Below are positions 26,055-49,741 of a stretch of DNA of 61,172 bases, in pieces. The position numbers and the translations under genes were made by a program. Position 1 is the stretch's first letter, and every line of letters begins with the position of its first letter. Source of the stretch: Acidobacteriaceae bacterium (GTDB taxonomy: Bacteria; Acidobacteriota; Terriglobia; Terriglobales; Acidobacteriaceae); assembly GCA_036267335.1 (NCBI GenBank), contig DATAWF010000175.1, positions 1 to 61,172 on the forward strand. The letters are read 5' to 3'. The notes beneath the pieces were generated by a model. That model ran no database searches. It saw nothing but the letters and a program-made list of their open reading frames with translations, and was not told the DNA's origin.

Positions 26055-29000
26055 CTACCGCGGATAAGGCAGCGGGATCACATCGCTCGGATCCAGGCCG
26101 AGTTCGATGAACATCTCCACCTGGAGTCGAGCGATCTCGGAATCTTTGGCGCTCTGTGTCAGGCCCTTGCTCGACTGAATCGACTTCTTGATGATTTCGA
26201 AAACCTCTCCCGCCGGGGCCGTGCTCTGTCCTCGCGCCTGCATAGCCTGAAACTCGCTCTTCCATCCGGCATCCATGGAGTAGTGGGGATCATGCTGCAG
26301 GAAGTTGGTGAAGGCCTCTTTTGGATCGTATCCGGGCACACCGCGCATCGCGGAGCGGGGCGCCGCGTGGGCCGCTTCCACACGGCCCGGCTTCGGCTTT
26401 CCCGTCTGGCCAAAGCCGTAAAGCAGTTGCGGATCGTTCGCCAGTTGCCGCTTGGCCGCGGAGCGCTGTCTCCACGGGAACAAGAGTTGGGGATCGCCGG
26501 CAGGCCCGATCTGGTTGACAGCCCGGTCGATCTCGCGCGCCGGAACGTTGCGCAGAGGATTGGTGGGAGTTCCGGAGCGGGGCGAAGGCTTCGGTTTCCT
26601 CTTGGGAGCGTTTTGCTCCGGGCCCGCTTCGATCACGGTGCCTTCCTCATCGCTGAAATCGATGTGCGTCACGCGGGCGCTGCCCGGTTGCGGCGAGCCG
26701 GTTCCAGACGCGGGTGTCCCGGCCGCGGCGTATCGGCTTTCGAGGAATTTTTCGTAATCCGAACCCGGCAGCCAGGGTTCGGTTTTGAAGGTCTTCTCGA
26801 CCGGCTTGCCGTCCAATTCCTGAAATTTCATGTAGTAGGGCTCCGCATCGCCGGGACGGAAGCCGATCTCGGTCACGCGGCCGGCGCCGGTTTGAGGATC
26901 GAGCCAGCGGATACGGGAGCTGACCGGGCCGACAGGCGATTGGCCTGTGATCTGCCCGTGCATCATCGCGTGGAAATCCCCGCCTGATGCGATGCGGGCC
27001 AGAGGATCGGCGCCGGGGTGATAGTGCTCGATGGGTTCCCAGTTGCGCCGCATGGAGGCATCGGAGAAGACGTCTTTTAAGCCGACCGACGTCTCCTTGC
27101 CCTGCACCACGATGAATTCACCGCTTGCCGGATCCCTGTAAATGCCCACTTCGCGCAGCGGATCGTGTGCGATCCAGCGATTGAATTCCTGATAGGCGCC
27201 GGCGCGATTGAGTTCGATCGCGGCCATGCCCACATCGTCGGCCCAGGGAATCTCGTCGACGCTTTTTGGAGCTTTTGCCGGAGCTTTGGAACCGGGAACG
27301 TTGGTCTCCTGATCCGGCGGAGTCGATGCCCGGCGAGTCCGCTGCCTGGTTTGCGTAACCGCGGAAGGCTCCGTCGGAGCGCCTTTGGTGCGCGCGCGCG
27401 GCGCGTTCTGCGGTTTACCGGTGCGAGATTCGACATCGGGCTGTGTGTCGACGTCGGTCGTATCGGCGACGACATCGCGCGGTTTGCTGCCGCCCTTCCC
27501 GCCGCTGGGGACACCCCCGTGTTCCTGCGCTGCCGCGGAGACGGTGTGGAACAAAACTCCAATGGCAAACTGTTTCGCCAGCTCTTCGATAAATTGGGCG
27601 TACGTCATCGGCTGAGCTTTGCCGCGCAGCTTGTCGAAGACCAGCCGGGCTACCGACTGAAATCCCGAAATCGTCCCCGACATGGCCGCCTCGACAGCAA
27701 ACTTCAGCGCGGGCCGGCCAAATTGAGCCGCCTCGGTTCCTAGCAACCGAGTCACCCCGGCTTCGCTTAGAACGCTGCCGAAACGCAGGGTCACCAACTG
27801 GAAGATCGTATCGAAGACGATGCCCGCCCAGTCGATCTGGTCCTGGATGCCCGCATCCACCAGCTTGCCTTCGATCGCCACTTCACCGAGCTCATGGGCG
27901 GCGATGCCCGTCACCGCCAGGCGTGTCACCGCCGCGCGGCCCGCGCCCGCAGCCGGCGCAAATACAATCGCGGCCAACAGTGCGGTGTCGATGATTCCAA
28001 CCAGAGTGGCGGTGTCGGTAGCCTCGCCGATCTTGAGCATCTGCTCGCCGGTCACGCAGACGATCTTGTTGTTGTCGTCGTACAGGCGGACCCGCACAAC
28101 GTCATCTGGCTTCAGGCGAATGCCGCCGGTAAAAACCTGCACCGGAAGAGTGCGTACTTCGTTATGAAAGTATGAGTTCCCGAAAACCGCATTCACGGGC
28201 TGGGAGACGAGGATAGAGTCTCCATCGCGGCGGGCAGTAATCGGTGCGACGTCGATCCGCCACAATCCCCTCGGCAAACGCAAAGGGAAGATCATCTCGT
28301 TGTCCGGGGCTCCAGCCTGGCATCTCGCTTTTTTTTGCTCGCCCGTAAGCTTGGCCGCCTCCTTCGTGCCGGCGAGCGGCGCGGCGGCTGCGACATCGCC
28401 TTTCGCGGCTCGCTGCTGCAAAACCTCGGCGGTGAACTTGGCAGTCCCCGAATCCGGTCCGAGCTCCGGCTTCTCGACCGCATCGTTGTGCAGGATTCGT
28501 ATGGTCTCGGTTGAAAGATGATTCAGCCGGCGGATCACGTCCGTTTTGTTGAATCCGTTGAGATATTCGCCCGCCCATCCGAAGTTCCCGAGCCGCATCT
28601 GCTTTTTGTAGTTGAAATCGAGATGGGTGTAGCGGGTAGCAATGGCAACCTGCGAATCCGGTCCCACTCCTTTGTTGCCGATCGCGCCCAGATAGATGTA
28701 GGAGATCTTTTCCGGATCATCCTTGAACGTATACAGAAATTGATTCATTTGCGCCGGGCTTAATCCATTGATCAACGCCGCAACCTCTTCCCATCGCGCC
28801 TCGTCCGCCTTGGCGTACGCTTCCCGGAAAATGGAACTCGATCCGTCGTAGGTCGCCGCGGCCTGACGGCGCAGGGTCCGACCCGCTTTGCCCTGTTGCA
28901 GAACGTGCGCCAGCTCGTGCGCGAGCAGATGGCGGCCATGCGATGTTTGCGGGCGATACTCGCCCGAGGCAAAGACCAGATGCGAGCCCACGGTATAAGC

Positions 29001-29612
29001 GCGAGCCTCGACCATGTGCGCCGACTCGGCCGCGCGGGCGTCGGTGTGCACTCGAACGTTGCTGAAATCCCGTCCGAAGCGTGGCTCCACAAAGGCTCGC
29101 GTCGCGGCGTCCAGCGGCTGCCCCGGAGTGCGAAGAACATCATGGACCAGCGGCGGCGCGTGCATCTGCGGCGCGTTTGGGCCAGCCTTGCGCTGGAGAG
29201 CTTCCTCTTTCTCATCAGCTTGCTTTGCCGCGCAGGCGGCACAGGGCGTGCCGTGCTCTTCGCAACTGCACATGCGCTGCACGGCAAGCGGGGAGCGGCC
29301 ATGTGCGATGGCGCGAGAGCCCTCGCGCACGATACTATCCGCAATGCGATCGGCCTCCATCTCGAGTGGATCGGAGACCGAGCCGACCGCCAGCTTTCGC
29401 TGCAGCCGCAGGCCATGGGGAAGGGAACTGCGATCGGGCCATCCCTGCGGGTCGATGGCGATCAGGCCGGCATGGGAGGGCAGGGCGCCCGTCGCCGTGT
29501 TTTGCCGGGCGCTTTTCTCCGCCGCCGGGATTCTCGATTGCCGGCGCGCAGGCTTCGCCGCCCGCTTTGCGGGGCGGACCGCCGTGACCGGACCTGGAGA
29601 AGACTCTGCCAT
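26055..29612 (-). CDS. Large multidomain DUF4157-type protein, putative eCIS cargo/effector
   Basis: LQRKLAVGSVSDPLEMEADRIADSIV ... RFGRDFSNVRVHTDARAAESAHMVEARAYTVGSHLVF...HLLAHELAHVLQQ is the zincin-like DUF4157 pattern. I moved the start to aa 79 of the ORF (MAESSPG), 1 nt after the upstream stop. It is the last gene of the CIS operon. Confidence 0.8.
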   Translation of the reverse strand: MAESSPGPVTAVRPAKRAAKPARRQSRIPAAEKSARQNTATGALPSHAGLIAIDPQGWPDRSSLPHGLRLQRKLAVGSVSDPLEMEADRIADSIVREGSRAIAHGRSPLAVQRMCSCEEHGTPCAACAAKQADEKEEALQRKAGPNAPQMHAPPLVHDVLRTPGQPLDAATRAFVEPRFGRDFSNVRVHTDARAAESAHMVEARAYTVGSHLVFASGEYRPQTSHGRHLLAHELAHVLQQGKAGRTLRRQAAATYDGSSSIFREAYAKADEARWEEVAALINGLSPAQMNQFLYTFKDDPEKISYIYLGAIGNKGVGPDSQVAIATRYTHLDFNYKKQMRLGNFGWAGEYLNGFNKTDVIRRLNHLSTETIRILHNDAVEKPELGPDSGTAKFTAEVLQQRAAKGDVAAAAPLAGTKEAAKLTGEQKKARCQAGAPDNEMIFPLRLPRGLWRIDVAPITARRDGDSILVSQPVNAVFGNSYFHNEVRTLPVQVFTGGIRLKPDDVVRVRLYDDNNKIVCVTGEQMLKIGEATDTATLVGIIDTALLAAIVFAPAAGAGRAAVTRLAVTGIAAHELGEVAIEGKLVDAGIQDQIDWAGIVFDTIFQLVTLRFGSVLSEAGVTRLLGTEAAQFGRPALKFAVEAAMSGTISGFQSVARLVFDKLRGKAQPMTYAQFIEELAKQFAIGVLFHTVSAAAQEHGGVPSGGKGGSKPRDVVADTTDVDTQPDVESRTGKPQNAPRARTKGAPTEPSAVTQTRQRTRRASTPPDQETNVPGSKAPAKAPKSVDEIPWADDVGMAAIELNRAGAYQEFNRWIAHDPLREVGIYRDPASGEFIVVQGKETSVGLKDVFSDASMRRNWEPIEHYHPGADPLARIASGGDFHAMMHGQITGQSPVGPVSSRIRWLDPQTGAGRVTEIGFRPGDAEPYYMKFQELDGKPVEKTFKTEPWLPGSDYEKFLESRYAAAGTPASGTGSPQPGSARVTHIDFSDEEGTVIEAGPEQNAPKRKPKPSPRSGTPTNPLRNVPAREIDRAVNQIGPAGDPQLLFPWRQRSAAKRQLANDPQLLYGFGQTGKPKPGRVEAAHAAPRSAMRGVPGYDPKEAFTNFLQHDPHYSMDAGWKSEFQAMQARGQSTAPAGEVFEIIKKSIQSSKGLTQSAKDSEIARLQVEMFIELGLDPSDVIPLPYPR

Positions 29613-29613: not shown

Positions 29614-30528
29614 TCAAATTCCGCGAGCGCAGGCGCTTTGCGCCACGCGTCTGCAATGCCGGTCGAAGGCCGGATCGGTTGCGGCCATCCGTTGTTCCAG
29701 CCGCGAAGTTGTTTCGAAATCCGACTTCGCGTCCCCAAGCAGGTGGGTGAACCCGGCTTGTGCCGACCGCGAAGGCGAGTACGCCTCGCCCCAGTTCGGA
29801 AACAAATAGCGGATGCGCACGCCGCGGTGAGGGGAATCGGGCGCACTGCGGTGATAGTCGATGCATGCGGCCAGCAAATATTGCTCGAGGATCATGTTGA
29901 AGCCGCTCTTTTCCGCCAGTTCGCGCCACGCGCCTGCGTATGCGGGATTCATCGCGAGATCGATGGCGAGATTTGCAAAGTAGCGAAGAAATGTGACGTC
30001 GTTCCCGCCCAGGATTCCGCAGTTCTCTTCGCGAAAGGTTGCGCCGCCGCGTGAGCAAGCCCATTCCCACTCCACCGGCAGCGGGTGGCCATGGCGCGCG
30101 AACAGCGACTCGATCTCTCCCGGTCCGCACCATGCATTCGCCGCGGGGTGCTCTTCCGGGCATTGCGCGAAGACCGGTGCGGCCGTGAGCGAAGAGGGCA
30201 AAGCGCGCCACAAAAACACGTCTGTATCGAGATGCACGAAGGGGCGGTCCTGCAGGCTGTAGGCGACGAGCTTGCCCAGCGCCCACCAGCCGGGATCGGC
30301 ATCGCGCAACCGGTCAAGTTCGGTGCTCACATGGGTGAAGTCGAGTCCCAAATGATCGACGAGGAGAGTCTTGCCCGCGGAATCGGTCACCAGGACCGTC
30401 TCAGGGTAGTGCTCCCGCGCCCGGCTCAGCGAGAGTCCCCACGCCAGCAGGTGGTGGTGCGGCTCCCGCCAGATGCGTCCCTTGTATTCCCGGAATGGCT
30501 TGCTCCAGAATGACCAGACTGCGCGCAT
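29614..30528 (-). CDS. Hypothetical protein with a DxD-type motif (possible GT-A-like glycosyltransferase fold)
   Basis: 304 aa, MRAVWSFWSKPF..., with FVHLDTDVFLW (DxD). Tightly packed between the fibre gene (13-nt gap) and the effector gene (1-nt gap). Confidence 0.5.
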   Translation of the reverse strand: MRAVWSFWSKPFREYKGRIWREPHHHLLAWGLSLSRAREHYPETVLVTDSAGKTLLVDHLGLDFTHVSTELDRLRDADPGWWALGKLVAYSLQDRPFVHLDTDVFLWRALPSSLTAAPVFAQCPEEHPAANAWCGPGEIESLFARHGHPLPVEWEWACSRGGATFREENCGILGGNDVTFLRYFANLAIDLAMNPAYAGAWRELAEKSGFNMILEQYLLAACIDYHRSAPDSPHRGVRIRYLFPNWGEAYSPSRSAQAGFTHLLGDAKSDFETTSRLEQRMAATDPAFDRHCRRVAQSACARGI

Positions 30529-30541
30529 GGTGTTCCTCGGT

Positions 30542-33046
30542 TTACTTCAACGGCGGCGCGGGTACCGCGCCTCCTGTCACCGCAAGCGTGGGCTGCTGGC
30601 TGGCGGGCCGGTTTCCCAGCGCTCCGGAGACCGAGACCACTAGCGTGAAGGTCACGGTGGTGCCGGCGCCCGGTGAGTTGACGATTTGAATCGGAACCGT
30701 AACGGAGGTTTTGCCGGCTGCGACCTGCGCAGTCGAGGCGATGGTTGCGATGGTTGATCCGGTGCTGCTGGTGAGTTGAAGCGAGAGAGAAGTGGCCGAG
30801 CTCGGCGCATAGCTCAGCCCGATGACCGCGTTGATGGCGGTTACGGTGGTCGCCGCGGTTCCCGTTCCCGCTTGCAACCCAGACATGATCCCTTGATACG
30901 TGACGTTCACCGTCACTGCGTTTCCCGAGACCGGCGTCGTGTTGTCGAACAATTCGATTGCGACCGTCGTGACCAGCACCGAGGATGCAAGATAAAACCA
31001 GCCTTGGAAATCGCTGGCCTTGGCGCCAGTGCCGCTCGGCATATCCAGGCCGATGCAGGTGCTGCCGTCCCCGGCGCGGGTGGCGTCGTCGCCGAAGGCG
31101 CCGCCGTCCAGATACAGATTGCCGTTGGCTCCAGCCGCATAGATCGTATCTCCCAGGAGCCGGATGCGAACCCGGGCATATCCCGCGGGATTGCTCGCGC
31201 CGAGCAAAGTATTGAGCACTTCGTAGAGATAGTAGGCGTTGTAGAGTGCAGGTCCTTGGAGCGACGCGGGGGCGAGCCATGTCACCTTGGTTCCCGAAAC
31301 AGTGATGCCGCTTGGGGGATCGAGCGCAACCACCGTCCGGACGAACACATCGGTTCCCCCTTGGGCCCCGATTCCCCCGAAGGCCGGAGACCGCGGCACA
31401 TTGTCGCCGGCAAGCGGGCACTCCAGAGAAACCGCAAAGTTGGCTCCGCTCCACGGCGATGTCGCGGCCTGGTCGAGCGTAAGGAACAAGCCATTCTGCA
31501 ACAGCGCGTCGACCGTCATGATGTCGTCGTTTTGCCAGCTCACGCTCGCCACGTGCAGAGCATCGGCAGTTTGGTCCTGCGCCAGTGCTGTCAGCGGAGG
31601 AAAGAGCAGCCGGCAATCGCTGGTGATGAATTCACCATCGGCATGAAAGCTCGATTGATATTTGTCGCCGCGTTTCCAGCTGATGCAGGCCAGGGGAGCG
31701 TTGTAGATGGGCGTGTACTTGGCCGGTTGAAAGAGGTTGCCGTCGCTGCCGCAGGGCGGCCAGTCGATGGTGCCGCTCGCCGTGCGAGCCACAATGGTCC
31801 AATAGTCGCCGGGCTGATAGCTGCCCTTGCGAAATGTGACCTCGATGCCGTTCTCGAGCGCGATAGGTTTTGAGGAAAGCGCGATGCCTTGCGCGGTGGC
31901 GCCGGAACCGCTCTGGTCCCAGCGGCGCATGCGCGCGTTCTGTCTCGTGTCGATGCCGGTGACGGGAGAGCTCAAAGTCACCTGCAGCGCCCCTGGGCCT
32001 AGCGAGGAGATCTGGTAGAGCTGCCCCGCTTGATTCGGCGTTTCGCCGAAGAGATAGGTGTCATCGGAAAGCTCCACCCATTGTCCGGGCTGGAAGCCGA
32101 GGTTCACATCGGGTCCCAGGCTGCTGGCTGTGACCACGGCTCCGCTGAGCTGCGTGACCGCGGCCACCACCGAGCCGTTCTCTCTCGACCATTTGAGCGT
32201 GGCTGTGTCGAGCGTGCCCGGGCTGTGAATCTCAACCCGGTAAAGTTGATTTTCGAGGCCCTGATATCCAGCCGATGGAACCGGGGAGCATCCGCATTCG
32301 GTGTTTCCCGTGCCGGTATCGGCGCTCATTGACCCGGTGCGGGAAACCAGAGTTTCGCGGTAGAGCGCCTGGCAGCAGCTAGAGAGCTGGGAGGTGGGGT
32401 CGACGTAGTTGCCTGTGCTCGTATCCGCTGGCGCGGAGACCGCGCTCGCTTGGGCGATCGGCCGGACTTTTTCGAGATCCTCTCCCGTGATTGTGTTATC
32501 CGTAGGAGCGGACGGCGTGCTGTTCTCGCTTTCATTGCTGCCGCCGGTGACCTGGCCGATCACGCGCCATACCGTTTGCAGGCGGGCGGTGGTGTCGGCC
32601 TGCCCCAGGGCCGGCTCGCGCAAGCAGCAGTCGTCGAGCGCCGTGACCAGCCGTTCCCAAACCTGGAGCGTGAGCTCGCCGGTAACCTGGCCGCTGCCGT
32701 TTGCCACTGCCGAGAGCAGTTGCAACGCGCTGTAGCTGGGATTAATCAGATAGGGCTGATCGTCATACGAAAGCCGCGCGTCATTCTCTACCAAGAGGCC
32801 TTCGACGTAATAGCGCCCGGTTGCGATGTTGATTCCGGCGCCGGCAATCGAAATCTCGAAACCGGCGTCGCCGATCGGGCCGCCGTAGGCGCCGATCACA
32901 TCGACATTCGTCGTGTCGCGCAGCCAGCCTTCGATGAACGCGCCTTCGTTCCCATCGGAATCGAGCGATGGCCGCCCTTGCTGGTCCAGGACTGCGGTGT
33001 AATTTTTTGCCGGGTTGAACCGAATCCTGCTGAAATCGCCTCTCAT
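30542..33046 (-). CDS. Putative tail fibre / receptor-binding protein (N-terminus of the DUF6519-like type)
   Basis: 834 aa. The N-terminus MRGDFSRIRFNPAKNYTAVLDQQGRPSLDSDGNE is a pattern I associate with CIS-linked DUF6519 proteins. The C-terminal part is T/S/V/A-rich and Ig-like. It sits after the baseplate wedge genes. Confidence 0.55.
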   Translation of the reverse strand: MRGDFSRIRFNPAKNYTAVLDQQGRPSLDSDGNEGAFIEGWLRDTTNVDVIGAYGGPIGDAGFEISIAGAGINIATGRYYVEGLLVENDARLSYDDQPYLINPSYSALQLLSAVANGSGQVTGELTLQVWERLVTALDDCCLREPALGQADTTARLQTVWRVIGQVTGGSNESENSTPSAPTDNTITGEDLEKVRPIAQASAVSAPADTSTGNYVDPTSQLSSCCQALYRETLVSRTGSMSADTGTGNTECGCSPVPSAGYQGLENQLYRVEIHSPGTLDTATLKWSRENGSVVAAVTQLSGAVVTASSLGPDVNLGFQPGQWVELSDDTYLFGETPNQAGQLYQISSLGPGALQVTLSSPVTGIDTRQNARMRRWDQSGSGATAQGIALSSKPIALENGIEVTFRKGSYQPGDYWTIVARTASGTIDWPPCGSDGNLFQPAKYTPIYNAPLACISWKRGDKYQSSFHADGEFITSDCRLLFPPLTALAQDQTADALHVASVSWQNDDIMTVDALLQNGLFLTLDQAATSPWSGANFAVSLECPLAGDNVPRSPAFGGIGAQGGTDVFVRTVVALDPPSGITVSGTKVTWLAPASLQGPALYNAYYLYEVLNTLLGASNPAGYARVRIRLLGDTIYAAGANGNLYLDGGAFGDDATRAGDGSTCIGLDMPSGTGAKASDFQGWFYLASSVLVTTVAIELFDNTTPVSGNAVTVNVTYQGIMSGLQAGTGTAATTVTAINAVIGLSYAPSSATSLSLQLTSSTGSTIATIASTAQVAAGKTSVTVPIQIVNSPGAGTTVTFTLVVSVSGALGNRPASQQPTLAVTGGAVPAPPLK

Positions 33047-33115
33047 CGCTCTTCCTGCCTATCTTCAAATTTCTGGGGTTGCCGGATTGACCCGCCATGG
33101 CGGGCAAACCCTCGC

Positions 33116-35425
33116 CTACAGCAATCCGATACCGATACCGATCGGAGTTTGATCGTGCGAATCTTCGCCAAGGCAGCGGTTTTTCTTTGGCGTCGTGCGC
33201 ATCCCGTACCCATAAGGCTCCATGCCGGGAACCGCCCGGTAGCGTTCGGCCCAGGGGACGAGAAAGACTCCGGCCTCCAGGTTTGCCGGGAGATACTCCG
33301 CGGAGCGGATCTGGATATTTGCAACCGCCTCAGTTTCCTGAATCTGCTGGTAGACGCCCATCTGCGAGCCGTTGTCCGCGCCCGTCCAGATGGCCAGCGG
33401 CACATACCCCGAAAGCAGACAGTAGCCGGGGTCACCGAAGCGGAGCGTGATGAACTGCGGCAGCAGCGCCGGTTCGCTTGCCGCATCGGGCGGCAGGCAT
33501 TCATAACGCCGCGGCACGATCGACTTGCACGGGAGCCAGCAAAAGCGGATGCAGCCGCTCTGCAGTTGATTCGCCCAGACCGGCGCCTTCCATGGATCGC
33601 GCTTGCCTAAACGCGCGTGGAAGATGGTGTTCGAGGCCAGTGGAATCGTTTGTGCCCAGATGCGGCCGATCACCGTCGAGTCTTCGATATGCAACGCCGC
33701 GCCCGCCGATGCCAGATCCGGTCCGGCAAATGCCGGGCAAAATGGCGAGCCCGCGTCGAGGATGCTGTTGAGAATGCGAGCGGAACAGCTTGCCGCAAGA
33801 GCAATGGGTCCGCTGATCGACCGCGTGATCGAGAGACACGATCCGATTGCGGTTCCCCAGAGCGAAGGTTCGCCGGGCGAGGCCGGATTGCCGTCGCCGG
33901 TGAGGGTACGGCCGGGCGTCAGCGTGCAGTCTGCGATCTGAACGCAGATCGCATCGCCGGTAATCGACATCGCGCCCGCCAATAAAATTCCGCTGAACAT
34001 CACCTGCCCCATGGGCGCAGCCTCCCCGCCCGCAAGCGGAGGAGAGGGCAGCCCGTAGATCTCGATCTGGCCATTCAGAGTTACCCGCGAGTGGTTCCAC
34101 TCGGGCGGCGCGCCCTGCTCGCTGACCTTCGCAGCCGCGATCACCAGTTGGCTCTCGGCGGAAATGGCAATCGCATTGGAGCCGGTGAGATCGACCGCCA
34201 GCGAATCGTAATTCGGCAGGACGATCACACCGGCTGAGCCCGCGGGCAGCGCATTCCATGCCGCTACGGCTGAGGCCAGCGTAGGAAATGCCGCTGAGCC
34301 GACGATCGCGTTGAAGATGCCGCTGCCCGCCGGTAAAGCGAGATTGGCCGAGCGGTCGTAGGAGCCGCCGCCGATCTGAGCTGGGGAACCGTAGCTGTAC
34401 GTCACCTGCAAGTCGGCAGGCAGCGCCATGTCCGCAGCAAACTGGATGCGGCCCAGTTCCGGGTCGATCGCGATCTTGCCCGCGGGCACAGTGCAGAGCT
34501 GCCCCGCCGTTTCAACCAGGTTGGCGCAGACGATCTGGCTTGCGTCGACCGCCTCCCCATCGGCGAGGAGCGCGATGCTCGATGGGTAAAACGCTGCGAT
34601 ATTTCGCGCGAAGCGTTCTCGTGTGATCGGCTGCGGAGTGTCGGCCTCCGTCATCAGGCGGGCGAAGGGCGCCGGCGCGGGAGGCGGTTGCTGGAAGAGA
34701 GGAGTCGGTGCTCCCAGCGTGCTGAAGAAATAGCCGCTATTGCCGAGCGCGAAGGCCGGAGCCTCGGCAAGCTGCCAGCTTTGCCAGCGCCACATCCAGA
34801 TCGCGATGTCGGGAACGTTATAGCGGCCCGGGCCGTGCAGCGTGATGTCCAGCGGAGTCGGATCCGGCGCAGCGGGTGCGACTCGATTCCGCGGCGCAAT
34901 CCGGCGCACATCGACGGTGCGGTTCAGCCGCGCGAATGGGCCTTCAATCTCATCCCAGTCCCGGCCGCGGCGAAAGTTGGCGGTGTCTGCATGATGCGCC
35001 CGCACATCGCGAAGGCTCAGGTTGGTGACCAGGTGTTTGAATTCTTCGACCACGATCGTCATCCGCCCTGAGACATCGCGGGTGAGCTGCTCCATTGCGA
35101 GAAGCGTGCCTTTGCGCCGCCGATAGCCGATGGTGTTCGCTACTTCCGCGCGGCTGTCCGGCCCCGTGAGCGCGACCGTGTAGATTGGGTCGAAGCCGAT
35201 GAGGGCGCCGATGTAGGGAATCGCCCAAGGCGCGCAGGTCTCGATGAACTGGTCATCGTAAAGCTGCCATGCATTGTTCCGTACCAGGTCGAGTTGGCTC
35301 TCCAGCACCGCGAAGAAGGCTTGAAGCTGTCCACCCTGCTGCGCGTCGCGGGTGCGAAAGACTGCCGGCAGCAGGTTGTAGAGCCCGCCGGCGGCGTTGC
35401 CCGGGGTGAGGCTCGGCGTGCTCAT
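33116..35425 (-). CDS. Baseplate wedge protein, P2 gpI-like (Afp12/Pvc12 analogue)
   Basis: LYNLLPAVFRTRDAQQGG.LQAFFAVLESQLD...FIETCAPWAIPYIGALIG is the N-terminal pattern of gpI-type tail proteins. ATGA overlap with the upstream gene. I moved the start to aa 33 of the ORF. Confidence 0.7.
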   Translation of the reverse strand: MSTPSLTPGNAAGGLYNLLPAVFRTRDAQQGGQLQAFFAVLESQLDLVRNNAWQLYDDQFIETCAPWAIPYIGALIGFDPIYTVALTGPDSRAEVANTIGYRRRKGTLLAMEQLTRDVSGRMTIVVEEFKHLVTNLSLRDVRAHHADTANFRRGRDWDEIEGPFARLNRTVDVRRIAPRNRVAPAAPDPTPLDITLHGPGRYNVPDIAIWMWRWQSWQLAEAPAFALGNSGYFFSTLGAPTPLFQQPPPAPAPFARLMTEADTPQPITRERFARNIAAFYPSSIALLADGEAVDASQIVCANLVETAGQLCTVPAGKIAIDPELGRIQFAADMALPADLQVTYSYGSPAQIGGGSYDRSANLALPAGSGIFNAIVGSAAFPTLASAVAAWNALPAGSAGVIVLPNYDSLAVDLTGSNAIAISAESQLVIAAAKVSEQGAPPEWNHSRVTLNGQIEIYGLPSPPLAGGEAAPMGQVMFSGILLAGAMSITGDAICVQIADCTLTPGRTLTGDGNPASPGEPSLWGTAIGSCLSITRSISGPIALAASCSARILNSILDAGSPFCPAFAGPDLASAGAALHIEDSTVIGRIWAQTIPLASNTIFHARLGKRDPWKAPVWANQLQSGCIRFCWLPCKSIVPRRYECLPPDAASEPALLPQFITLRFGDPGYCLLSGYVPLAIWTGADNGSQMGVYQQIQETEAVANIQIRSAEYLPANLEAGVFLVPWAERYRAVPGMEPYGYGMRTTPKKNRCLGEDSHDQTPIGIGIGLL

Positions 35426-38241
35426 GACCACACTCCTACATTGCCTTGCGAGGCCGGATCGAGCAGCAGAACTTCCGCGCCCGTCGGCGGATTGGCGGTG
35501 GGTTGCGGGCCGGAGGCGCAAAGAATCGGAGCTACCCCGGCGGGATCGCCGCTGCGATTGACCGAGGTGAGGTTCACGGCAATCACTCCATCCACTTGCT
35601 GGGCAAGCTGGATGATCTGACTCGCGGCGACCCCCTGGCCCGGCAGCATGTTTCCAAAAGCGTAGGCCGAGGAAAGATTCTGCCAGACCTGCGCGATCAC
35701 CAGCGACGAAACATAGGTGGGCGAGTCGACCATCACCTGCATGCTGACCTCGAACAGCACCGGCGTGTACGACACGATCTGCACCGGAACATAGGGCAGG
35801 CCGAAATCTCCCAGCGCCGTTTGCAAATTCATCACCATCGCATCGTTTGCGTTGAGAACCGTGCCGCCTTCTCCTGCGACGGTGAGAAAGATGCCGCGAG
35901 TTACGCCAAACCAGGCCCAGGAAGCGACCGCCATGGCGATCCCGGCAAAATTAAGTGCGAAGTTCTGATAGTCCTCGAGAGAAACCACGCGGCCCAATGT
36001 GAGGGTAGGCAGCGGGGCTGAGAGGCGCGCCAAGCCGGAAGTCGCCGGATCAGCGCCGCCCGTCGCCGCGCTTGGATTCGTGACCGACTGAAGGCCCTGG
36101 GGGCGATCGAGCGGTTGCGAGAGCTGGCCGGCTGCGACCATGCCGGCGATGCCAAGCCCTTTGCGGTACTGCGCCCAGATGTTCGATTGCCCGGTCGGAG
36201 TGAGAGAGCCCTGCTGCCCGTTCCCGAATTGCACAAAGGGCCCCGCGCCGGGGCTCGGCAGGGTGATGTAAACGCGGTCCGATGGACCGGAGTTGAGAAG
36301 GTTGTCCACCTCGCTCCAAAGCAGGTTGTTCACGCGCACCTGCAAGGTCGATTGCACTCCGTTTCCTGTGGCCGCGGAGAGATACGTGAGCGGCGACTGC
36401 TTGAGCTGAAATTCAAGCGACGCATGGGTCGCGTTGCCGGAGCCGAGAATCTCCTGCATCGTCTCGCCGTGCGTTGCCTGAACCGCATTGGCATTGACGG
36501 TGACGGTCGCCGCGTCATAGATGCGAGTCAGCGCCGCATTCAACGACAGTGCGGTCGTTGCGCCTTCTACTTCCGCATCGGAGATCACGGCCGCTTCGCC
36601 GGTTGTGGGGTCGGAGGAGGCCGATGGCTGCAGTTGAAAGCCGGTTGTTGGCGTTGAAAGAATGCCGGCTTGGCCGGTGACGGTGAGCACGCTCCACAAC
36701 AGGTTGCCGGTTGTTGGATCCGTCGGCGGCGGAAATGCGTCCACCAAAAACGGCTGATTGGCGCTCACGTTGAGCATGCCCGTCGCGCCCATTGGAGTAA
36801 ACCCTCCGGAGGGCGAAGCCAGATTGGAAGTTGCGACGATGCGCAGACGCTTGCCGCTGATCGCGACAGGGGCGTTGACGGCCAGAGGTTGCAGGCCCTG
36901 CAGCGAGAAGCTCGTGCCGGAGACAGGCGCCAGCATCGCCGTTGCCAGTGGGTACGTGGCGCTCTGCGCCCATGTGGTGATCGGGAGATTCGCGCCCGTC
37001 AGCGGTTGTGACTGCACATATGCGGTCGTGACGCGCGTCTCCTGCACAAACTCGTAGAGCACCTCGGTGAGGGTAAGCGATGTGTCTCCCGTGAGAACCG
37101 TGCCGCTCGCCAAAGTAACCTGCGTGCTTTTGATCGAGAGTGCGTACAGGTTGGGATTCGATTCCGCGGCGCTTTGAATCTGGAAGAAGGATGTGTACTG
37201 AGGGCCGGTGAGCACCATCCATTGCGACTGGCTCGCGGGGGCGTTTGCGCCGCTGGCCGCGGGATTGAGCCCGGCATAGGAGTTGTCCAGATTGACGGTC
37301 TCGTTCTCCCCGTAAACCCAACTCCAGTCCGCCGAGGCCGATTGCGTCCCGGGAGCGCCCGGGATGTTGCTGATCGTCGTCGACGGAAACATGCCCGGCC
37401 ACGGAGCGGACGCGCCATAAAGCGCAGCCTTCGTGCGAAAAATGTAGATGCAGATTGCGGATCCGCTCAGCGAAGAGGGGAGTGGAGTGTTCCAGGCCAC
37501 GAGTGTGTTGCCGCCCACAGGATTGATCGTCACGGACGTGACATAGACGAATCCCGCTGGACCGCTCTGCGACGGCACGCCGCCGGGGGCGCTGAGGAAC
37601 AGCATCGCATCGCCGGCGTGGATGTTGTTCGCCGTGCCCGCAATCCATGTCGACGTATCGCTCCCATAAAGCTGCCAAGGCGTGTAGATGACCGCGGGGA
37701 TGGAATTGCCCGCGATGGTGGCGGTCAGATCGGAAGAAGTTTCAAAAACCTGTGGCGTCTGGTTTGGGCCAGGGATGCTCTGCACGCGCGTTCCTGCTGG
37801 AATCGGCACTCTGGCGGGGGAGCCCGGCGCCGAGCCCAGCGTAAATGCCAGCACCGTCGATGCGCTGACCCCCGGAGAGGGCGTGTATCCCACCAGACGG
37901 GCGAGTTCGAAGACGCTGCGATCTTCAACCGCGGTCTCCAGATAAGCCTCGTTGGCCAGCCGTTCGGTGTAAAACGTGAGGATGTCCAGAACCTCGGACC
38001 AGGCGTCGATGACCGCAATCGAGAAGTCGGTGGAGTCGTGCGTACGCAAGCCGGCCAGCGCCGGATATTCCGACGAGGAAAGCGCGCTGACCATGCTCTC
38101 GTAAAAGCTGGCGTAGGTGCCGGCGCGATACTGAATCGCGGTGAGCCCGGGACGATTGGCCACCGCGGCGGGTGTCGATTGCGTGACCCCCGCGCAGCAG
38201 CCGCAGAGCGTGGCTCCCGTTTCCTGGCATGAGCAGGTCAT
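35422..38241 (-). CDS. Large baseplate assembly protein (gpJ/gp6-like, second paralogue)
   Basis: 939 aa. N-terminus MTCSCQETGATLCGCCAGV..ANRPGLTAIQYRAGTYASF is typical of CIS putative baseplate assembly proteins. 4-nt overlaps on both sides. Confidence 0.8.
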   Translation of the reverse strand: MTCSCQETGATLCGCCAGVTQSTPAAVANRPGLTAIQYRAGTYASFYESMVSALSSSEYPALAGLRTHDSTDFSIAVIDAWSEVLDILTFYTERLANEAYLETAVEDRSVFELARLVGYTPSPGVSASTVLAFTLGSAPGSPARVPIPAGTRVQSIPGPNQTPQVFETSSDLTATIAGNSIPAVIYTPWQLYGSDTSTWIAGTANNIHAGDAMLFLSAPGGVPSQSGPAGFVYVTSVTINPVGGNTLVAWNTPLPSSLSGSAICIYIFRTKAALYGASAPWPGMFPSTTISNIPGAPGTQSASADWSWVYGENETVNLDNSYAGLNPAASGANAPASQSQWMVLTGPQYTSFFQIQSAAESNPNLYALSIKSTQVTLASGTVLTGDTSLTLTEVLYEFVQETRVTTAYVQSQPLTGANLPITTWAQSATYPLATAMLAPVSGTSFSLQGLQPLAVNAPVAISGKRLRIVATSNLASPSGGFTPMGATGMLNVSANQPFLVDAFPPPTDPTTGNLLWSVLTVTGQAGILSTPTTGFQLQPSASSDPTTGEAAVISDAEVEGATTALSLNAALTRIYDAATVTVNANAVQATHGETMQEILGSGNATHASLEFQLKQSPLTYLSAATGNGVQSTLQVRVNNLLWSEVDNLLNSGPSDRVYITLPSPGAGPFVQFGNGQQGSLTPTGQSNIWAQYRKGLGIAGMVAAGQLSQPLDRPQGLQSVTNPSAATGGADPATSGLARLSAPLPTLTLGRVVSLEDYQNFALNFAGIAMAVASWAWFGVTRGIFLTVAGEGGTVLNANDAMVMNLQTALGDFGLPYVPVQIVSYTPVLFEVSMQVMVDSPTYVSSLVIAQVWQNLSSAYAFGNMLPGQGVAASQIIQLAQQVDGVIAVNLTSVNRSGDPAGVAPILCASGPQPTANPPTGAEVLLLDPASQGNVGVWS

Positions 38242-40691
38242 TTGCCACCATCCATCGTTAAGACCAGCAGCCCGCGATCGGCGTGGTTGGGATCGTTGTC
38301 GCAGCGCGGAATTTCAAGGCTTCCCATGGCCAACTGGTTAGGCGCGGCTGTATTCGGGGGCGTGGGCGAGTCCATGCGCTCGAAGATGGTAAGCGTGACG
38401 GAGACGACTCCGGTCACAGCCTGCACCGCCGCGAGGATCGGGCTGGCATAAACCGTTTCCCCAAACTCGAAGTTGGCCGCATTCAATATTCCAAGCTGGC
38501 CTGTGCAGGGGTCGCCGGTAACCAGGAGCGCCCATACTGCGGCGTAGACATCTCCCTGGAAGTAGCTCGCGCCGACGCAGATCGTAAGTCCGATTTCGAT
38601 GCCGACCAATTGTGCGGCTTCGGCAACCACATCGGTTCCCATCATGCGCAGTGTGTTCAGGCTGGTGGTCACGGAGCTCCGCAGTGCGGGCGGAAGAGCC
38701 GGGCCCAGAGACGTGGGCTCGATCGAGACAAAGGCCGTATACCACGAGCCCGTCCAGCGGATGGTGCCCTTGGCTTCCGCAACGCCCGGCAGCCCGCTCG
38801 CCATCGTGGAGTAATCGTCTTGCGTGACGCAGCGGAGCTGGCTCTCGAAGCTGAAGGGCGCCACCTGGCGAATGTGGTCCATGTTTTCGGGATCGGTTCC
38901 TCCCGATGCGGCGATTGGATTGCGCACCCCGCTGATGCCAAGTGCGTTGAAGAGCACGTGCGCGAGCGCCTCGCGGCCTACGTTGCCGGAGGAGCCGAGC
39001 CCGGTACGATACGTGGCCGTGAAGGCTACCCCCGTGGCGGGAGCGCTGCCATAGGTGTTGTCACCGAAGCGCAGGTGAGCGCTGCCGTCGAATTCAATCT
39101 CGGGCACGAATCCGGTAAATTCGCTGCCTTCGTCGAGCAGGTCTTCAATCGGTGTCCAGGTGGCCCCATCATTGCTCGCGAGAGTGATTTGTGCGGCTGC
39201 CGTTGTCACGTTGGGCGAGAGAAATGCAGTGGCCGCCGCCGTGACGCTGTAGGGTACGGCGAAGGTGAGAGGCTGCTTGGCGAGCACCGGCCGGAATCGT
39301 GGCACGTCCGCGGCCAGGCCCGAGACCGGGCTGCAGTTGCAGCCCGCGCCCGCGACCGGCGCAGGCGGGGCAGCAGGCACGACGCCCAGGGATTCATTCG
39401 TGGTCCATGTGCCTTGATCCGCGGGAAGAACGTTTCCACGCGCGACCGAAACGCCTGCCAGGGGCCGCGATCCATGCTCCGCATCGGTCACGGACGAGAT
39501 GCATAAAGGAAAGAGCAGCGCGTCCGCGCTCTGCCATGCAATGTTGGTCAGGTTTGTTCCCGTTACCGGATCCTGCAAAAGCATTCCGCTTTGATTGACG
39601 GTTGTGGCCGCGGTGAGGCGGACGGCGCAGCGGTGAGTCGGATCGGCGTCGGCCGGGTCGCCGCTCAGCGGCCCTACGACTTCTTCAAAAACCAGCACGT
39701 CGCCCGCCGCGAGGCTGGGAAAGATTCCCTTCAGAGTCGCCTGCGTCGTACCGGCGGCGAGGCAGCATTGGCCGTCTCCCCAGGTATAGAAGTCCATCTG
39801 GTTTTGCTCGGGATGGAGCACCAGATTGGCGAGACTCTCAAAGACCGGCCCGGAGCTGGCCTCGAGAATATCGGCGGAGTAGCTATCGGAGCTGATCGAG
39901 GGGGCAAGCCCGGGGACGAGAGGGAAAATCTGTGTGCCGGCAGGAACGGTGACGCCGTCTATCGTCGCCGTCAGGCAGACCCAGGCCCGCGCATTCGCGC
40001 CTTCCTGAACCTGGTAGTCGACAAGCCGCGCGTGGCGCCGGAGCGAAATGCGGCTGCGGGCCGTGCCGATGTAGGCCTCGGTGTTGACCGCATCTTGCAG
40101 ATAGCTGATGCGATCGGCTGCATAGGCCAGCGTTTCGAGAATCGTAATCCCGGGGTCGGCGACGTGGGTCTCGCTCCACGCCGGCAGAAGCGCAGCCATG
40201 CGATCGAGGAGCGCCTGGCGGAAGCCGTCGTAGTCGCGCGCCAGGTAGTGGATATCGGGTGGCGTCGCCGGCGACGCCGGGCAGCAGGTCGTCGTCTCGC
40301 AATCGGCTGGAGAAGGGCAGCTGGCCTTGAAAGAAAACGTCACCGTCGCGAGCTGCGGATCGATCCCTGCGGGCGGGTCCGAATTGGTGGGCGATGCAAC
40401 CAGTGTGAGCGTGTAGGGAGAGAAATCGCCGCTCGCGGCAAGCTGTGCCGTCAGAGTGAGCGGATCGGAGGCCGTTGCGCCCGTGATTCCCAGCACCTGC
40501 GGCGTCGTGTCTCCCGCAATCGCGATGTTTTGCGGGGCGAGCGAGAGCGTCCGCGCGTCTTTCAGAAACGTGATGGCGAGTTGTGTGCCGCAGCCCGCCG
40601 ATCCCAGCACCTCGAGATAGTCGATGCCATTGAGCCCCGGGGTCTGGAGCACCAGGTCGCGCCGCTGCTTGTCCTGGCAGAAGGCGATCAT
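38238..40691 (-). CDS. Baseplate J-like protein (gpJ/gp6, Afp11 analogue)
   Basis: LNGIDYLEV... then IHYLARDYDGFRQALLDRMAALLPAW...DPGITILETLAYAADRISYLQDAV, the baseplate J signature. I moved the start to aa 47 of the ORF (MIAFCQ), which gives an ATGA overlap with gp25. Confidence 0.85.
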   Translation of the reverse strand: MIAFCQDKQRRDLVLQTPGLNGIDYLEVLGSAGCGTQLAITFLKDARTLSLAPQNIAIAGDTTPQVLGITGATASDPLTLTAQLAASGDFSPYTLTLVASPTNSDPPAGIDPQLATVTFSFKASCPSPADCETTTCCPASPATPPDIHYLARDYDGFRQALLDRMAALLPAWSETHVADPGITILETLAYAADRISYLQDAVNTEAYIGTARSRISLRRHARLVDYQVQEGANARAWVCLTATIDGVTVPAGTQIFPLVPGLAPSISSDSYSADILEASSGPVFESLANLVLHPEQNQMDFYTWGDGQCCLAAGTTQATLKGIFPSLAAGDVLVFEEVVGPLSGDPADADPTHRCAVRLTAATTVNQSGMLLQDPVTGTNLTNIAWQSADALLFPLCISSVTDAEHGSRPLAGVSVARGNVLPADQGTWTTNESLGVVPAAPPAPVAGAGCNCSPVSGLAADVPRFRPVLAKQPLTFAVPYSVTAAATAFLSPNVTTAAAQITLASNDGATWTPIEDLLDEGSEFTGFVPEIEFDGSAHLRFGDNTYGSAPATGVAFTATYRTGLGSSGNVGREALAHVLFNALGISGVRNPIAASGGTDPENMDHIRQVAPFSFESQLRCVTQDDYSTMASGLPGVAEAKGTIRWTGSWYTAFVSIEPTSLGPALPPALRSSVTTSLNTLRMMGTDVVAEAAQLVGIEIGLTICVGASYFQGDVYAAVWALLVTGDPCTGQLGILNAANFEFGETVYASPILAAVQAVTGVVSVTLTIFERMDSPTPPNTAAPNQLAMGSLEIPRCDNDPNHADRGLLVLTMDGGK

Positions 40692-41065
40692 TGCGTCGGC
40701 CCTCCGTACAGGAATTGCTGCGACTGCTGTTGCTGATTGAAGATCAGCGTGTAGACGACCGTGACCTGGAGCGTCGAGTCCTGCGTGGTCACGGTGACCG
40801 ACTGGACGCGGATCAAGTCCGAAAGCCATTGCTGCAGTCCTGCTTGAATAGCCTGCCGCTGCGCTGCGGCAAGAATGTCGCTGTTCGGCGCAAAGACCAG
40901 TTGGGCGGTGCCGCTGCCGAAGGTCGGCCGGTTGACTCGCTCTCCCGGCGAAGTGAATAGCATCAGCTCCACCATGTCCTCCACGTGGCGAGCGATGGAT
41001 GCGGCCTGGGCCGTGTGCCCGGTCGAGTCGAAGCCGTAAGGAAAGGCCAGATTTACCGTACTCAT
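40688..41065 (-). CDS. GPW/gp25-family baseplate wedge protein
   Basis: 125 aa. HVEDMVELMLFTSPGERVNRPTFGSG is the classic gp25 motif. Confidence 0.9.
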   Translation of the reverse strand: MSTVNLAFPYGFDSTGHTAQAASIARHVEDMVELMLFTSPGERVNRPTFGSGTAQLVFAPNSDILAAAQRQAIQAGLQQWLSDLIRVQSVTVTTQDSTLQVTVVYTLIFNQQQQSQQFLYGGPTQ

Positions 41066-43458: not shown

Positions 43459-44082
43459 TCACGACTGCTGTGCGAGCGATTCCTTGCTCATCTGGTAAGA
43501 CATGTAGAGCGATCCGGCCGGCGTCAGGAAGCCCACATCGTTGACGTTCAGCACGCGCATCGTCAGCGAGACTTTGGCGCGAATCGGATTGAGCTTGGGA
43601 TCGAAGGCTTCTTCCGTGATCTCGATGCCCGTCAGGCGCACCGGCGTCACACGATTGGCTCCCCAGATGAAGACGGTGAGATTGGAAGACATGGGGAGAA
43701 TCTCGATCGTTCCTACGAGCGAGAGAACTTCATTGGCGATCAGGATCCCGCTCGACGGATAGACCAGGAGCTCGAGCACGGCCAGTTGGGGCGAGATCCC
43801 GAGGTTCATGGTGGTCGGGTCGGAGGCCGCAAGCTGATCGGTGGCGTCGATTTCGACATCGCAAGTGATGGTCTCGATCGGCGGACCTTTCAGCCGCAGC
43901 ACCTCGGTGCGATCCGGTTGATCGCCCACGCTCTGCGGCTGCAGGCTTCGCCGGATAGTTTCGGGGTTGTACTGGAGCTGGATGGTATTGAGCGGAATGC
44001 CGGTGTTTGGCTCCAGCACCAGGATGGCTCCCTTTTGCAGCAGCGGTGAGACGTTAGGCACGGCGGTTTCCTCCCTTGCCAA
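43459..44082 (-). CDS. Tube-like / tube-initiator protein (second tube-family member)
   Basis: 207 aa. ...LTVFIWGANRVTPVRLTGIEITEEAFDPKLNPIRAKVSLTMRVL resembles the C-terminal pattern of CIS tube-family proteins. The start is uncertain (29-nt overlap with the upstream small gene; alternative at V8). Confidence 0.55.
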   Translation of the reverse strand: MAREETAVPNVSPLLQKGAILVLEPNTGIPLNTIQLQYNPETIRRSLQPQSVGDQPDRTEVLRLKGPPIETITCDVEIDATDQLAASDPTTMNLGISPQLAVLELLVYPSSGILIANEVLSLVGTIEILPMSSNLTVFIWGANRVTPVRLTGIEITEEAFDPKLNPIRAKVSLTMRVLNVNDVGFLTPAGSLYMSYQMSKESLAQQS

Positions 44083-44329
44083 TCAGTTGCGAGCGTATTG
44101 CCGAGGCGACCTGCGCCGCGGCCTGGGCAGCGTCGGCGGGGGAGCGCATGCGCCCGGCGTCAATCGATCGAAGCTTGCGTGCCCCCTGCGCGAAAACATG
44201 AGGATCGAGATCGTGCGCCAGAGAAGCGAGCTCCGCTTCGAGAGCGCGAACGAACTGGTGCTTGGCCGATCCCGGAAGTCCGTCGACGATGAGGCGGCCG
44301 ATCTCGAGATGCAGAACATTGCGGCTCAT
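44054..44329 (-). CDS. Small hypothetical protein (91 aa) of the CIS operon
   Basis: ATGA overlap with the ATPase stop when started at MSRNVLHLEIGRLIV. No recognisable family. Confidence 0.45.
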   Translation of the reverse strand: MSRNVLHLEIGRLIVDGLPGSAKHQFVRALEAELASLAHDLDPHVFAQGARKLRSIDAGRMRSPADAAQAAAQVASAIRSQLIGKGGNRRA

Positions 44330-49219: not shown

Positions 49220-49741
49220 TTATGCGTGGGTTGAGGTGAAGCTTGGCTCCGTCGGCTCCGTCACGGAGACATCCCGCTCCCAGCCCTCGTTTTCCAGAAT
49301 GAGGTGCTGGATGGCGACCGCGTTGGCGTCGAGATCGGGCAGCGCCTGAAATTCCGAGACCCACGCGCGATAGATCTTGTAGCTGATCGCGAGTTGGCCG
49401 GCTTCGTTGTAAAAATCGAGAATGAGGTCTTTGCGAAAATCGGCGAGCGATACCTCGGCGCCCAGCGAGGCTCCAATCTGCCACACCTTGGCGGCCCAGG
49501 CCTCGAAGGCCAGGTCATGGGTGACGCCCCGCTCCAGAGTGATCGGTCCGAATTCCGTTCGCCCTGGAGACTTGCGGCTGGTGCTGGGGTCGCCGCCCTC
49601 GCGGTGCTTGACAACCTCCGTAGTGCGCTTTAGCGCCGAGCACTTGCTCACTCCGGCCACATACTGGCCGTCCCATTTCAGACGGAACTTGAAATTCTTG
49701 TACGGATCGAAACGTTGCGCGTTGACGACGAATTCTGTCAT
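49220..49741 (-). CDS. Tail tube protein (T4 gp19-like; Afp1/Pvc1 analogue)
   Basis: MTEFVVNAQRFDPYKNFKFRLKWDGQYVAGVSKCSALKRTTEVVKHREGGD....RKSPGRTEFGPITLERGVTHD. GGGAGGAG lies upstream of the ATG. I moved the start to aa 60 of the ORF. Confidence 0.9.
   Translation of the reverse strand: MTEFVVNAQRFDPYKNFKFRLKWDGQYVAGVSKCSALKRTTEVVKHREGGDPSTSRKSPGRTEFGPITLERGVTHDLAFEAWAAKVWQIGASLGAEVSLADFRKDLILDFYNEAGQLAISYKIYRAWVSEFQALPDLDANAVAIQHLILENEGWERDVSVTEPTEPSFTSTHA

Follow-up and report, generated by a model that had tools for sequence, protein, structure and literature searches.

A DUF4157 protein encoded at the 3' end of a contractile injection system operon of an Acidobacteriaceae bacterium: modules of a probable polymorphic toxin

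We analyzed one gene of a stretch of DNA from an Acidobacteriaceae bacterium (assembly GCA_036267335.1, contig DATAWF010000175.1, positions 1 to 61,172 of the forward strand). The whole stretch of 61,172 nucleotides is called the window below. The gene is the last one of an extracellular contractile injection system (eCIS) operon, and its product, here called the target, has a DUF4157 domain near its N-terminus (module A), followed by modules B, C, D, and E. We think it quite likely that the target is a polymorphic toxin delivered by the eCIS, that is, a protein of the class described as "eCIS-associated toxin" or "PVC-metallopeptidase toxin" (PVC, Photorhabdus virulence cassette).

The gene and the modules of its product

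The target gene is real. The NCBI nr database holds a record of exactly the same product of 1185 amino acids (aa), and near-identical copies of the target lie on three other metagenome contigs; the representative of its sequence cluster differs from it by S649A. The start codon ATG at 29612 is 1 nt past the TGA of the upstream DUF6734 gene, and because of this TGA-G-ATG junction we regard the target gene as translationally coupled to the operon. The longest form of the open reading frame (ORF) extends to a GTG at 29846. This start, which gives 1263 aa, was rejected, since it causes an overlap of about 230 nt with the DUF6734 gene and the deposited product has 1185 aa. A few related proteins had organism names attached, and these were mostly of Acidobacteriota.

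The borders of the modules were obtained by mapping 119 homologues on the target and by an exhaustive search of 1.84 billion representatives with its C-terminal 403 aa. The confidence values (predicted local distance difference test, pLDDT) of B, C, linker 1, and D come from an AlphaFold2 model of aa 252-980, the 729-aa composite model. The positions of all modules are shown in Table 1.

In module A, the Pfam family PF13699 (eCIS_core, formerly DUF4157) matched aa 166-243 with an E value of 2.3e-30 (105.1 bits; cut-off, 22). An earlier interpretation of this DNA made from its letters alone, called the sequence-only reading below, had placed a DUF4157 domain with HELAH at the N-terminus and had proposed a profile search as a check of itself; the strong match leaves that claim standing. 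HELAH occupies aa 232-236 within HELAHVLQ at aa 232-239, and all family-conserved positions of DUF4157 are kept in the target, including H232, E233, H236, and Q239. Over 278 copies of the domain the HExxHxxQ positions are conserved at 99-100%. That is, the zincin signature is intact in the target. Module A also contains the motif LQRK...DPLEMEADRIA upstream of the Pfam core. The module is common to all of the 119 homologues listed, and 1895 database proteins match DUF4157 at E <=1e-5. A sequence search of the Protein Data Bank (PDB) with the whole target returned only thermolysin, around HExxH, with an E value of 0.27. DUF4157 has been reported to mark eCIS toxins encoded at the 3' ends of operons (PMC8213781, PMC11297309).

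Two side observations concern this module. A CxC...CxxC cluster (MCSCEEHGTPCAAC, aa 115-127; 29232-29270, minus strand) stands after the LQRK...EADRIA motif and before the Pfam core and could be a small zinc knuckle; it is missing from P0122, the one relative compared. DUF4157 often occurs in two or three copies per protein, with a spacing of about 400-1000 aa (119 proteins had 278 copies; e.g., P0010-P0060), and the target differs from these many relatives in having a single copy.

The first 65 residues are not conserved in the relatives, and the homologue alignments begin at query residues 43-74. As judged from composition only, 82% of the residues of aa 1-40 are disorder-promoting and the net charge of this part is +7.

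Module B contains two weakly similar repeats of about 65 aa (W..aA..LNGF..d....L....GA..N..VGPDS), with a repeat score about 3 standard deviations above that of shuffled sequences. It is common to relatives whose C-termini are ADP-ribosyltransferase (ART) or PT-HINT domains. In precomputed annotations, DUF4157 relatives sharing module B (P0032 and P0044; L001 1671-4169) carry PF26963 (DUF8303). This module may already be numbered, as DUF8303, in a newer Pfam; PF26963 is not in the Pfam copy used here.

Module C is conserved end to end in 10 relatives, most of which then continue with Ntox1. Its helical part looks like an amphipathic Ala/Gly-rich domain with one transmembrane (TM)-like helix at aa 537-559, as judged from sequence. 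The only 19-residue Kyte-Doolittle window above the usual threshold is aa 537-555, with a value of 2.14, and a second hydrophobic window at aa 597-615 is borderline (1.42). The low AlphaFold2 confidence at aa ~556-700 is partly an artefact, because the mixed alignment (A3) contained no aligned homologues there.

Linker 2, in which the short basic stretch KRKPKPSPR is found, is not conserved among the carriers of D or E. The sequence-only reading had described a helical region, then a beta-rich region, and later two basic, Pro-rich linkers. All of these were recovered, namely as the all-helical aa 258-411 (pLDDT 90-97), aa 436-521 (pLDDT 80-94), and, by composition, aa 701-788 and 973-1040.

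Neither sequence nor profile searches matched modules B to E to Pfam-A, NCBIfam, or a PDB chain, and the whole target had no match in PHROGs, tape-measure or other. Foldseek with the composite model gave generic helical-repeat matches only (E >=0.08), leaving module B without an assignment.

The operon and the relatives of the target

The genes for the sheath, tube, Pvc16_N protein, AAA+ ATPase, baseplate J protein, and baseplate-wedge protein all lie upstream of the target on the same strand, and the genes downstream are convergent, with no same-strand gene next. The eCIS operon therefore ends with the target gene, as the sequence-only reading had stated. A terminator-like hairpin overlaps its stop codon. 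No other DUF4157 gene is present in the window. The role of the Pvc15-like ATPase as a cargo loader is taken from papers on PVC and AlgoCIS (PMC11495950; preprint 10.64898/2026.05.27.728243).

No small same-strand ORF was found 3' of the E-bearing gene in any of seven loci, that is, the window, L003, L004, L006, L007, L010, and L011. The remark of the sequence-only reading that no obvious immunity gene follows is borne out by these loci as well as by the convergent genes and the hairpin over the stop codon in the window. According to published remarks, many PVC and eCIS toxins have no immunity genes (PMC3482391, PMC8213781), and our seven loci agree with them in this respect.

Table 1. Positions of the target, its modules, and neighboring genes in the window.
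Feature	Residues (aa)	Position	Strand	Basis or remark
Target coding sequence, 1185 aa and stop		26055-29612	-	ORF list and translation; last gene of eCIS operon
N-terminal region, candidate loading signal	1-65	29418-29612	-	Pro/Ala/Arg/Lys-rich, net charge +6
Module A, extended DUF4157/eCIS_core ("PVC-metallopeptidase")	66-250	28863-29417	-	Pfam and conservation
Module B, all-helical	258-411	28380-28841	-	AlphaFold2 pLDDT 90-97
Module C, beta-rich part	436-521	28050-28307	-	AlphaFold2 pLDDT 80-94; strong conservation across 10 relatives
Module C, Ala/Gly-rich helical part	522-700	27513-28049	-	Kyte-Doolittle; long helices, low to moderate confidence
Linker 1, basic, Pro/Thr-rich	701-788	27249-27512	-	Composition; pLDDT <50, predicted disordered
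Module D, alpha/beta domain of unnamed family	789-972	26697-27248	-	AlphaFold2 pLDDT 90-98; alignment A2
Linker 2, Pro/Gly/Ser-rich, with short basic stretch	973-1040	26493-26696	-	Composition; model reaches only aa 980
Module E, presumed toxin, unnamed family	1041-1185 (core 1077-1184)	26058-26492	-	Alignment A1; AlphaFold2
DUF6734 gene		29614-30528	-	Directly upstream of target; Pfam DUF6734, E 7e-48
DUF6519 gene		30542-33046	-	Upstream of target
Baseplate-wedge protein		35422-38241	-	Upstream of target
Baseplate J		38238-40829	-	Upstream of target
CIS_tube		43459-44082	-	Upstream of target
Pvc15-like AAA+ ATPase, presumed cargo loader		44326-46404	-	Upstream of target; Pfam AAA, E 2.7e-24; winged-helix WHD, E 1.2e-14
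Pvc16_N		46374-47639	-	Upstream of target
gp19-type tube		49220-49918	-	Upstream of target
Sheath		49783-51861	-	Upstream of target
453-aa protein, hydrophobic signal-peptide-like N-terminal segment		24395-25756	+	Convergent downstream gene; no Pfam match
MacB/FtsX-type transporter gene		21662-24391		Directly precedes gene of 453-aa protein

Then the coverage of the target by the 119 homologues was mapped. Relatives share aa ~60-700 and then have Ntox1 in place of the C-terminus of the target; in others the switch, to ART or PT-HINT, comes earlier, past module B. That is, known toxin-type domains replace the C-terminal part of the target among its relatives, as is the case in the toxin class named above. 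All of the DUF4157-bearing relatives that were looked up lie in or beside eCIS or eCIS-linked genes (L001-L004, L010), except that of L011, the upstream side of which ends at the start of the contig.

The neighborhood also showed the following. The order DUF6519, DUF6734, DUF4157 in the window (29614-33046, minus strand) is found again in L003 (2230-7052), and DUF6734 is followed by DUF4157 in L001 (757-4169); DUF6734 may be a conserved partner of DUF4157 cargo genes. In L002 (8604-12985) and L010 (1126-6342), tandem pairs of DUF4157 genes lie between the AAA+ ATPase gene and baseplate or tube-initiator genes, in a tape-measure-like position, compared with the single DUF4157 gene at the end of the operon in the window. 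In the baseplate/fibre part of the operon, three ORFs on the minus strand (33043-33504, 33116-35521, and 33501-34259) overlap in more than one reading frame. None of the three had a Pfam match, and 33116-35521 had no PHROGs match either; the gene calls within 33043-35521 may be ambiguous.

Modules D and E

Module E is found at the very end of the proteins that carry it. In 86 of the 92 carriers it ends within 16 aa of the C-terminus, and nearly all carriers of at least 570 aa also have DUF4157. Other carriers include P0154, a 2602-aa fusion of the SpvB-TcdB (TcB/TcC) type (L007 6001-13809), and the RHS-repeat protein P0223. Since E forms the end of P0154, it appears to be used as a cargo of Tc (toxin complex) proteins in addition to eCIS and RHS proteins. 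Strongly hydrophobic stretches just before E are also present in P0223 and in the short DUF4157 protein P0122.

In alignment A1 (53 sequences), the near-invariant residues of E are H1082, T1102, H1110, D1114, W1117, and E1166. Conservation of such residues suggests that E is an enzyme. The AlphaFold2 model of E has a pLDDT of 93.6 and a predicted TM-score (pTM) of 0.88. In the model, H1082 ends the strand 1078-1082, and the strand 1101-1106 is followed by the helix 1107-1126, which bears H1110 and D1114. The sequence LLPxDVH of E members resembles LVPRDVH of WHH domains, one of the 53 members weakly matches Tox-GHH (E 0.12), and HNH and homing endonucleases occur among the non-significant matches of E in BFVD. 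Based on the His of the first strand, the helix with H and D, and these three resemblances, a nuclease of the His-Me-finger type is our favored guess for E, tentative and somewhat short of an even chance, though every formal test of it failed: the searches gave no HNH-type family or structure match.

E had no match in Pfam or NCBIfam and no usable profile match in the PDB. Thus the last domain of about 150 aa, which could not be assigned by eye, is a region (aa 1041-1185) that is confidently predicted to fold and has no match in the PDB, BFVD, Pfam, or NCBIfam.

Module D was aligned with its relatives in alignment A2 (38 sequences, 27-59% identity to the target). Only six residues are invariant, namely E821, G838, H863, H865, S876, and D879. 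Apart from one glycine, these are the JAMM pattern E..HxH..S..D, with the Glu 42 residues before HxH. In the AlphaFold2 model, the Glu stands just before a strand, HxH ends a strand, and S..D starts the next helix. This order of secondary structure and placement of the motif fit those which we take to be present in AfJAMM.

Among the library representatives there are 56 carriers of D, and in 37 of them at least 118 aa follow it. When 46 carriers were scanned, eCIS_core was found in 20, and about a quarter had known toxin domains: WHH in 3, colicin DNase in 3, Ntox4 in 3, and further a Pput2613 deaminase and an NS endonuclease. The toxin domain came after D wherever its position was examined (WHH, Ntox4). 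A class of pre-toxin, or releasing, domains has been defined for polymorphic toxins (PMC3482391). D behaves as such a domain, because in most carriers it stands before a further C-terminal region. Judging from this position and the motif, D is most likely a releasing metallopeptidase that would free the terminal domain.

Hydrophobic segments were also compared. In 77% of the D carriers, the 300 aa upstream of D include a 19-residue window with a Kyte-Doolittle value >=1.6, as do the 300 aa upstream of E in 50% of the E carriers. When 300-aa windows were drawn at random from DUF4157 proteins, the proportion was 17%; this control is crude, and the sequences compared are related. The excess over random windows supports the idea that this part of the protein interacts with a membrane. 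The recurrent order of hydrophobic segment, D, and toxin is a new element.

D and E occur together in no other representative. The combined D+E query gave 273 matches at E <=0.001 among the 50%-identity representatives. A word-indexed search yielded no more than 2 proteins for aa 780-1185, with the low-complexity linkers probably swamping the candidates, and the exhaustive search was used instead. A genome scan with the full target protein found no close relative. E-bearing DUF4157 proteins were found in two metagenome-assembled genomes, of a member of Chloroflexia and of Polymorphobacter; these examples come from a reduced alignment, the full alignment of E being too diverse for patterns.

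Interpretation and significance

The PVC-metallopeptidase toxins have a constant N-terminus and a variable C-terminus and often have no immunity genes (Zhang et al. 2012, PMC3482391). Like these proteins and the eCIS-associated toxins (Geller et al. 2021, PMC8213781; Danov et al. 2024, PMC11297309), the target combines an N-terminal DUF4157 domain, in which HExxHxxQ is present, with a long linker region and a C-terminal toxin region that varies; its gene stands at the 3' end of an eCIS operon and has no immunity gene next to it. It differs from them in that B, C, D, and E match no named family (Pfam-A, NCBIfam, PHROGs, PDB). Since both the sequence features and the context of the class are present, we assign the target to the known DUF4157 class of eCIS toxins. 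The sequence-only reading had proposed a cargo or effector with the architecture of a modular toxin. The DUF4157 match, the operon with its loader, the swapping of C-termini, and the place of E in the toxin position agree with this proposal, from which loading and toxicity would follow.

Among the proteins studied by experiment, Cgo1 and Cgo2 of AlgoCIS are DUF4157 proteins shown to be cargo of the tube lumen (PMC8894135, 2022; preprint 10.64898/2026.05.27.728243), and their loading needs a disordered N-terminal domain (the same preprint). Both resemble the target in their N-terminus, which in the target is putatively disordered, and in DUF4157 and a large C-terminal region, and Cgo2 is of similar size (1228 aa versus 1185 aa); the AlgoCIS cluster, like the operon of the target, encodes an AAA+ ATPase. 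The C-terminal domains of Cgo1 and Cgo2 differ from each other; the sequence comparison with the target covers the shared domain, and lumen loading has been demonstrated for Cgo1 and Cgo2 only.

The C-terminal modules can be compared with other systems. E takes exactly the position of the hypervariable C-terminal toxin domains of TcC/RHS proteins in P0154 and P0223, whereas the E of the target is carried by a DUF4157 eCIS protein and not by an RHS cocoon. D has the same E..HxH..S..D residues as the JAB/JAMM (MPN+) enzymes, which include Tox-JAB-1/2 and RadC, and in the model these are at a strand end and a helix start. Between its HxH and S, D has a loop that exceeds that of RadC by 3 residues, and D is mostly internal and in the pre-toxin position, whereas Tox-JAB-1/2 are terminal toxin domains. 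PT-HINT, the caspase-like domains, and the cysteine protease domain of MARTX and large clostridial toxins resemble D in being protease-like domains just upstream of interchangeable toxins. The motif of D is chemically unrelated to theirs, and self-cleavage is a property that we only presume for D.

We propose that the target works as follows. By analogy with Cgo1/Cgo2 and PVC payloads, the probably disordered, basic N-terminal ~65 aa may serve as the loading signal, and the Pvc15-like ATPase may recognize it and thread the protein into the inner tube's lumen. DUF4157 with its intact HExxHxxQ would be the constant marker and might act as a releasing peptidase or as an aid to folding and processing. 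B and C, which are common to relatives with other toxins, would form a conserved shuttle. Once the protein is ejected, module C probably uses its Ala/Gly-rich hydrophobic helices to engage the membrane of the injected cell and to help the C-terminal part cross it. D would then cut the terminal domain free by means of its JAMM-type site, and E would be the toxic moiety, an enzyme built around the conserved H, H, D, and E and possibly a nuclease of the His-Me-finger type. An immunity gene would not be needed if the toxin is unfolded or sequestered in the producer or if the targets are distantly related.

Several results weigh against this picture. Our observations are those of architecture, conservation, and context, and from these we infer loading, cleavage, membrane action, and toxicity. 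DUF4157 of AlgoCIS is dispensable for loading, and the toxicity of Cgo1 is independent of the metalloprotease motifs (PMC8894135); for these two reasons the role of module A is unsettled. As for D, no match to a JAB-clan Pfam family (JAB, Prok-JAB, RadC, Toxin-JAB1, DUF4329) was obtained with E values up to 10 and 38 members, NCBIfam gave no match, and the profile search returned no PDB JAB chain. Alignment of D by hhalign with YeeS, RadC, and lambda K covered only a stretch of 21-23 columns, HxH(..S..D), with a P value of ~0.01-0.02; the JAB templates were of very low diversity, the RadC homologues all being near-identical E. coli sequences that make a shallow profile. Among the best 50 Foldseek matches of the composite model there was no MPN/JAB structure. 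Thus, of the JAB-like module seen by the sequence-only reading, the JAMM motif is present and a match to JAB families at the level of profile or fold is not; membership of D in the JAB superfamily, and its fold, are unproven. The same reading had seen 2-3 membrane-inserting helices, which was an overstatement: one helix is TM-like and one is borderline. Strong hydrophobicity of the TM-like helix is not conserved among the closest relatives, in several of which the equivalent helix contains R and D residues, and two or three TM helices were rejected as a firm feature on account of the single window above the threshold and these charged residues. This weakens the claim of 2-3 membrane-inserting helices and does not remove the idea that module C interacts with a membrane. 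Finally, E has no structural neighbor by Foldseek (best E value, 0.24 in the PDB and 0.12 in BFVD; TM-scores <=0.33), and hhalign aligned only 7 columns of E with WHH. E as a relative of WHH or Ntox4 was rejected as unsupported by hhalign.

Other explanations were also weighed. The target might be mainly a structural or assembly factor, related to a tape measure as Tme is or serving as a membrane anchor, with its middle part lining the tube or anchoring the system and its C-terminus an add-on. Tme of Streptomyces davawensis (Nagakubo et al. 2024, PMC11126660) resembles the target in its N-terminal DUF4157, hydrophobic helices, and long disordered stretches; it has a toxic C-terminus, a nuclease, and co-purifies with baseplate proteins. 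Moreover, relatives with A-C or A+E (P0007 in L002; L010) sit between the ATPase and baseplate/tube-initiator genes, and B and C are long and helical. However, Tme has more than 2200 aa, takes the tape-measure position, and shows remote homology to tape measures and to EndA, whereas the target is the last gene of its operon, after fibre-like genes, has another C-terminus, and gave no tape-measure match in PHROGs, so that neither homology nor position places it with Tme. The swapping of its C-terminus with known toxins is, in addition, a behavior of toxins. We consider this explanation quite improbable, and it partly overlaps with the delivered toxin, as Tme itself is an ejected effector. That the target is exported or exposed at the surface by a route other than eCIS, the operon around it being incidental, seems very improbable. 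DUF4157 is present in some type VI secretion system (T6SS) effectors (cited in PMC11297309), and E is present in proteins of the RHS and Tc kinds, whose routes of delivery are different, but the target is translationally coupled to the operon and contains no detectable Sec signal or PAAR, VgrG, RHS, or LXG domain. Both the recurrence of the gene order with DUF6519 and DUF6734 in L003, or with DUF6734 in L001, and the eCIS surroundings of the looked-up relatives other than that of L011 also speak against such a route.

It is unlikely, if less so than the two explanations above, that D itself is the effector, as a JAMM-type deubiquitinase or peptidase or a RadC-like nuclease at work in the injected cell, and that E is either an accessory domain, e.g., with a role in targeting or in binding the substrate, or the second toxin of a "polytoxin". 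In about 15 of the 56 carriers, D is followed by 25 aa or fewer; JAB clades are known as polymorphic-toxin domains and have been proposed to be nucleases, and releasing peptidases of the PVC-metallopeptidase and caspase-like types are sometimes terminal toxins (PMC3482391). Against these points, in most carriers another domain follows D (known nucleases and a deaminase are among these domains), and several of the "terminal" D modules may be cuts at contig ends; P0123 stops inside the family consensus of D. E, on the other hand, stands at the terminal toxin position in 92 carriers without D.

The toxin class itself has been known since 2012, and its experimental exemplars are the eCIS-associated toxins, Cgo1/2, and Tme. 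What is new here is that the families D and E, which the searched libraries do not contain, have been delineated. DUF4157 proteins are the chief marker of eCIS payloads, and 983 of the 1130 predicted ones have no annotated toxin domain (PMC11297309). An eCIS DUF4157 protein with an unknown C-terminus is no surprise to a specialist, and the general picture of eCIS biology is unchanged.

For this class, the target gives clear borders for four unannotated modules, and the families of D and E are widespread. E is a testable toxin candidate, as it has a defined H/H/D/E site, a confident fold prediction, no solved relative, and carriers in three delivery systems. A more far-reaching proposal is that E is a toxin with a fold and activity absent from the PDB, moving among eCIS, RHS, and Tc proteins, and that D is a new JAMM-like family of autoprocessing pre-toxin peptidases, typically placed after a membrane-inserting hydrophobic segment and freeing the toxin in the injected cell; we regard it as possible and rather doubtful. 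If it is true, two processing modules of the metallopeptidase type, DUF4157 and D, would act at different stages of delivery. D could also be useful for engineered eCIS delivery if it does free the cargo after injection.

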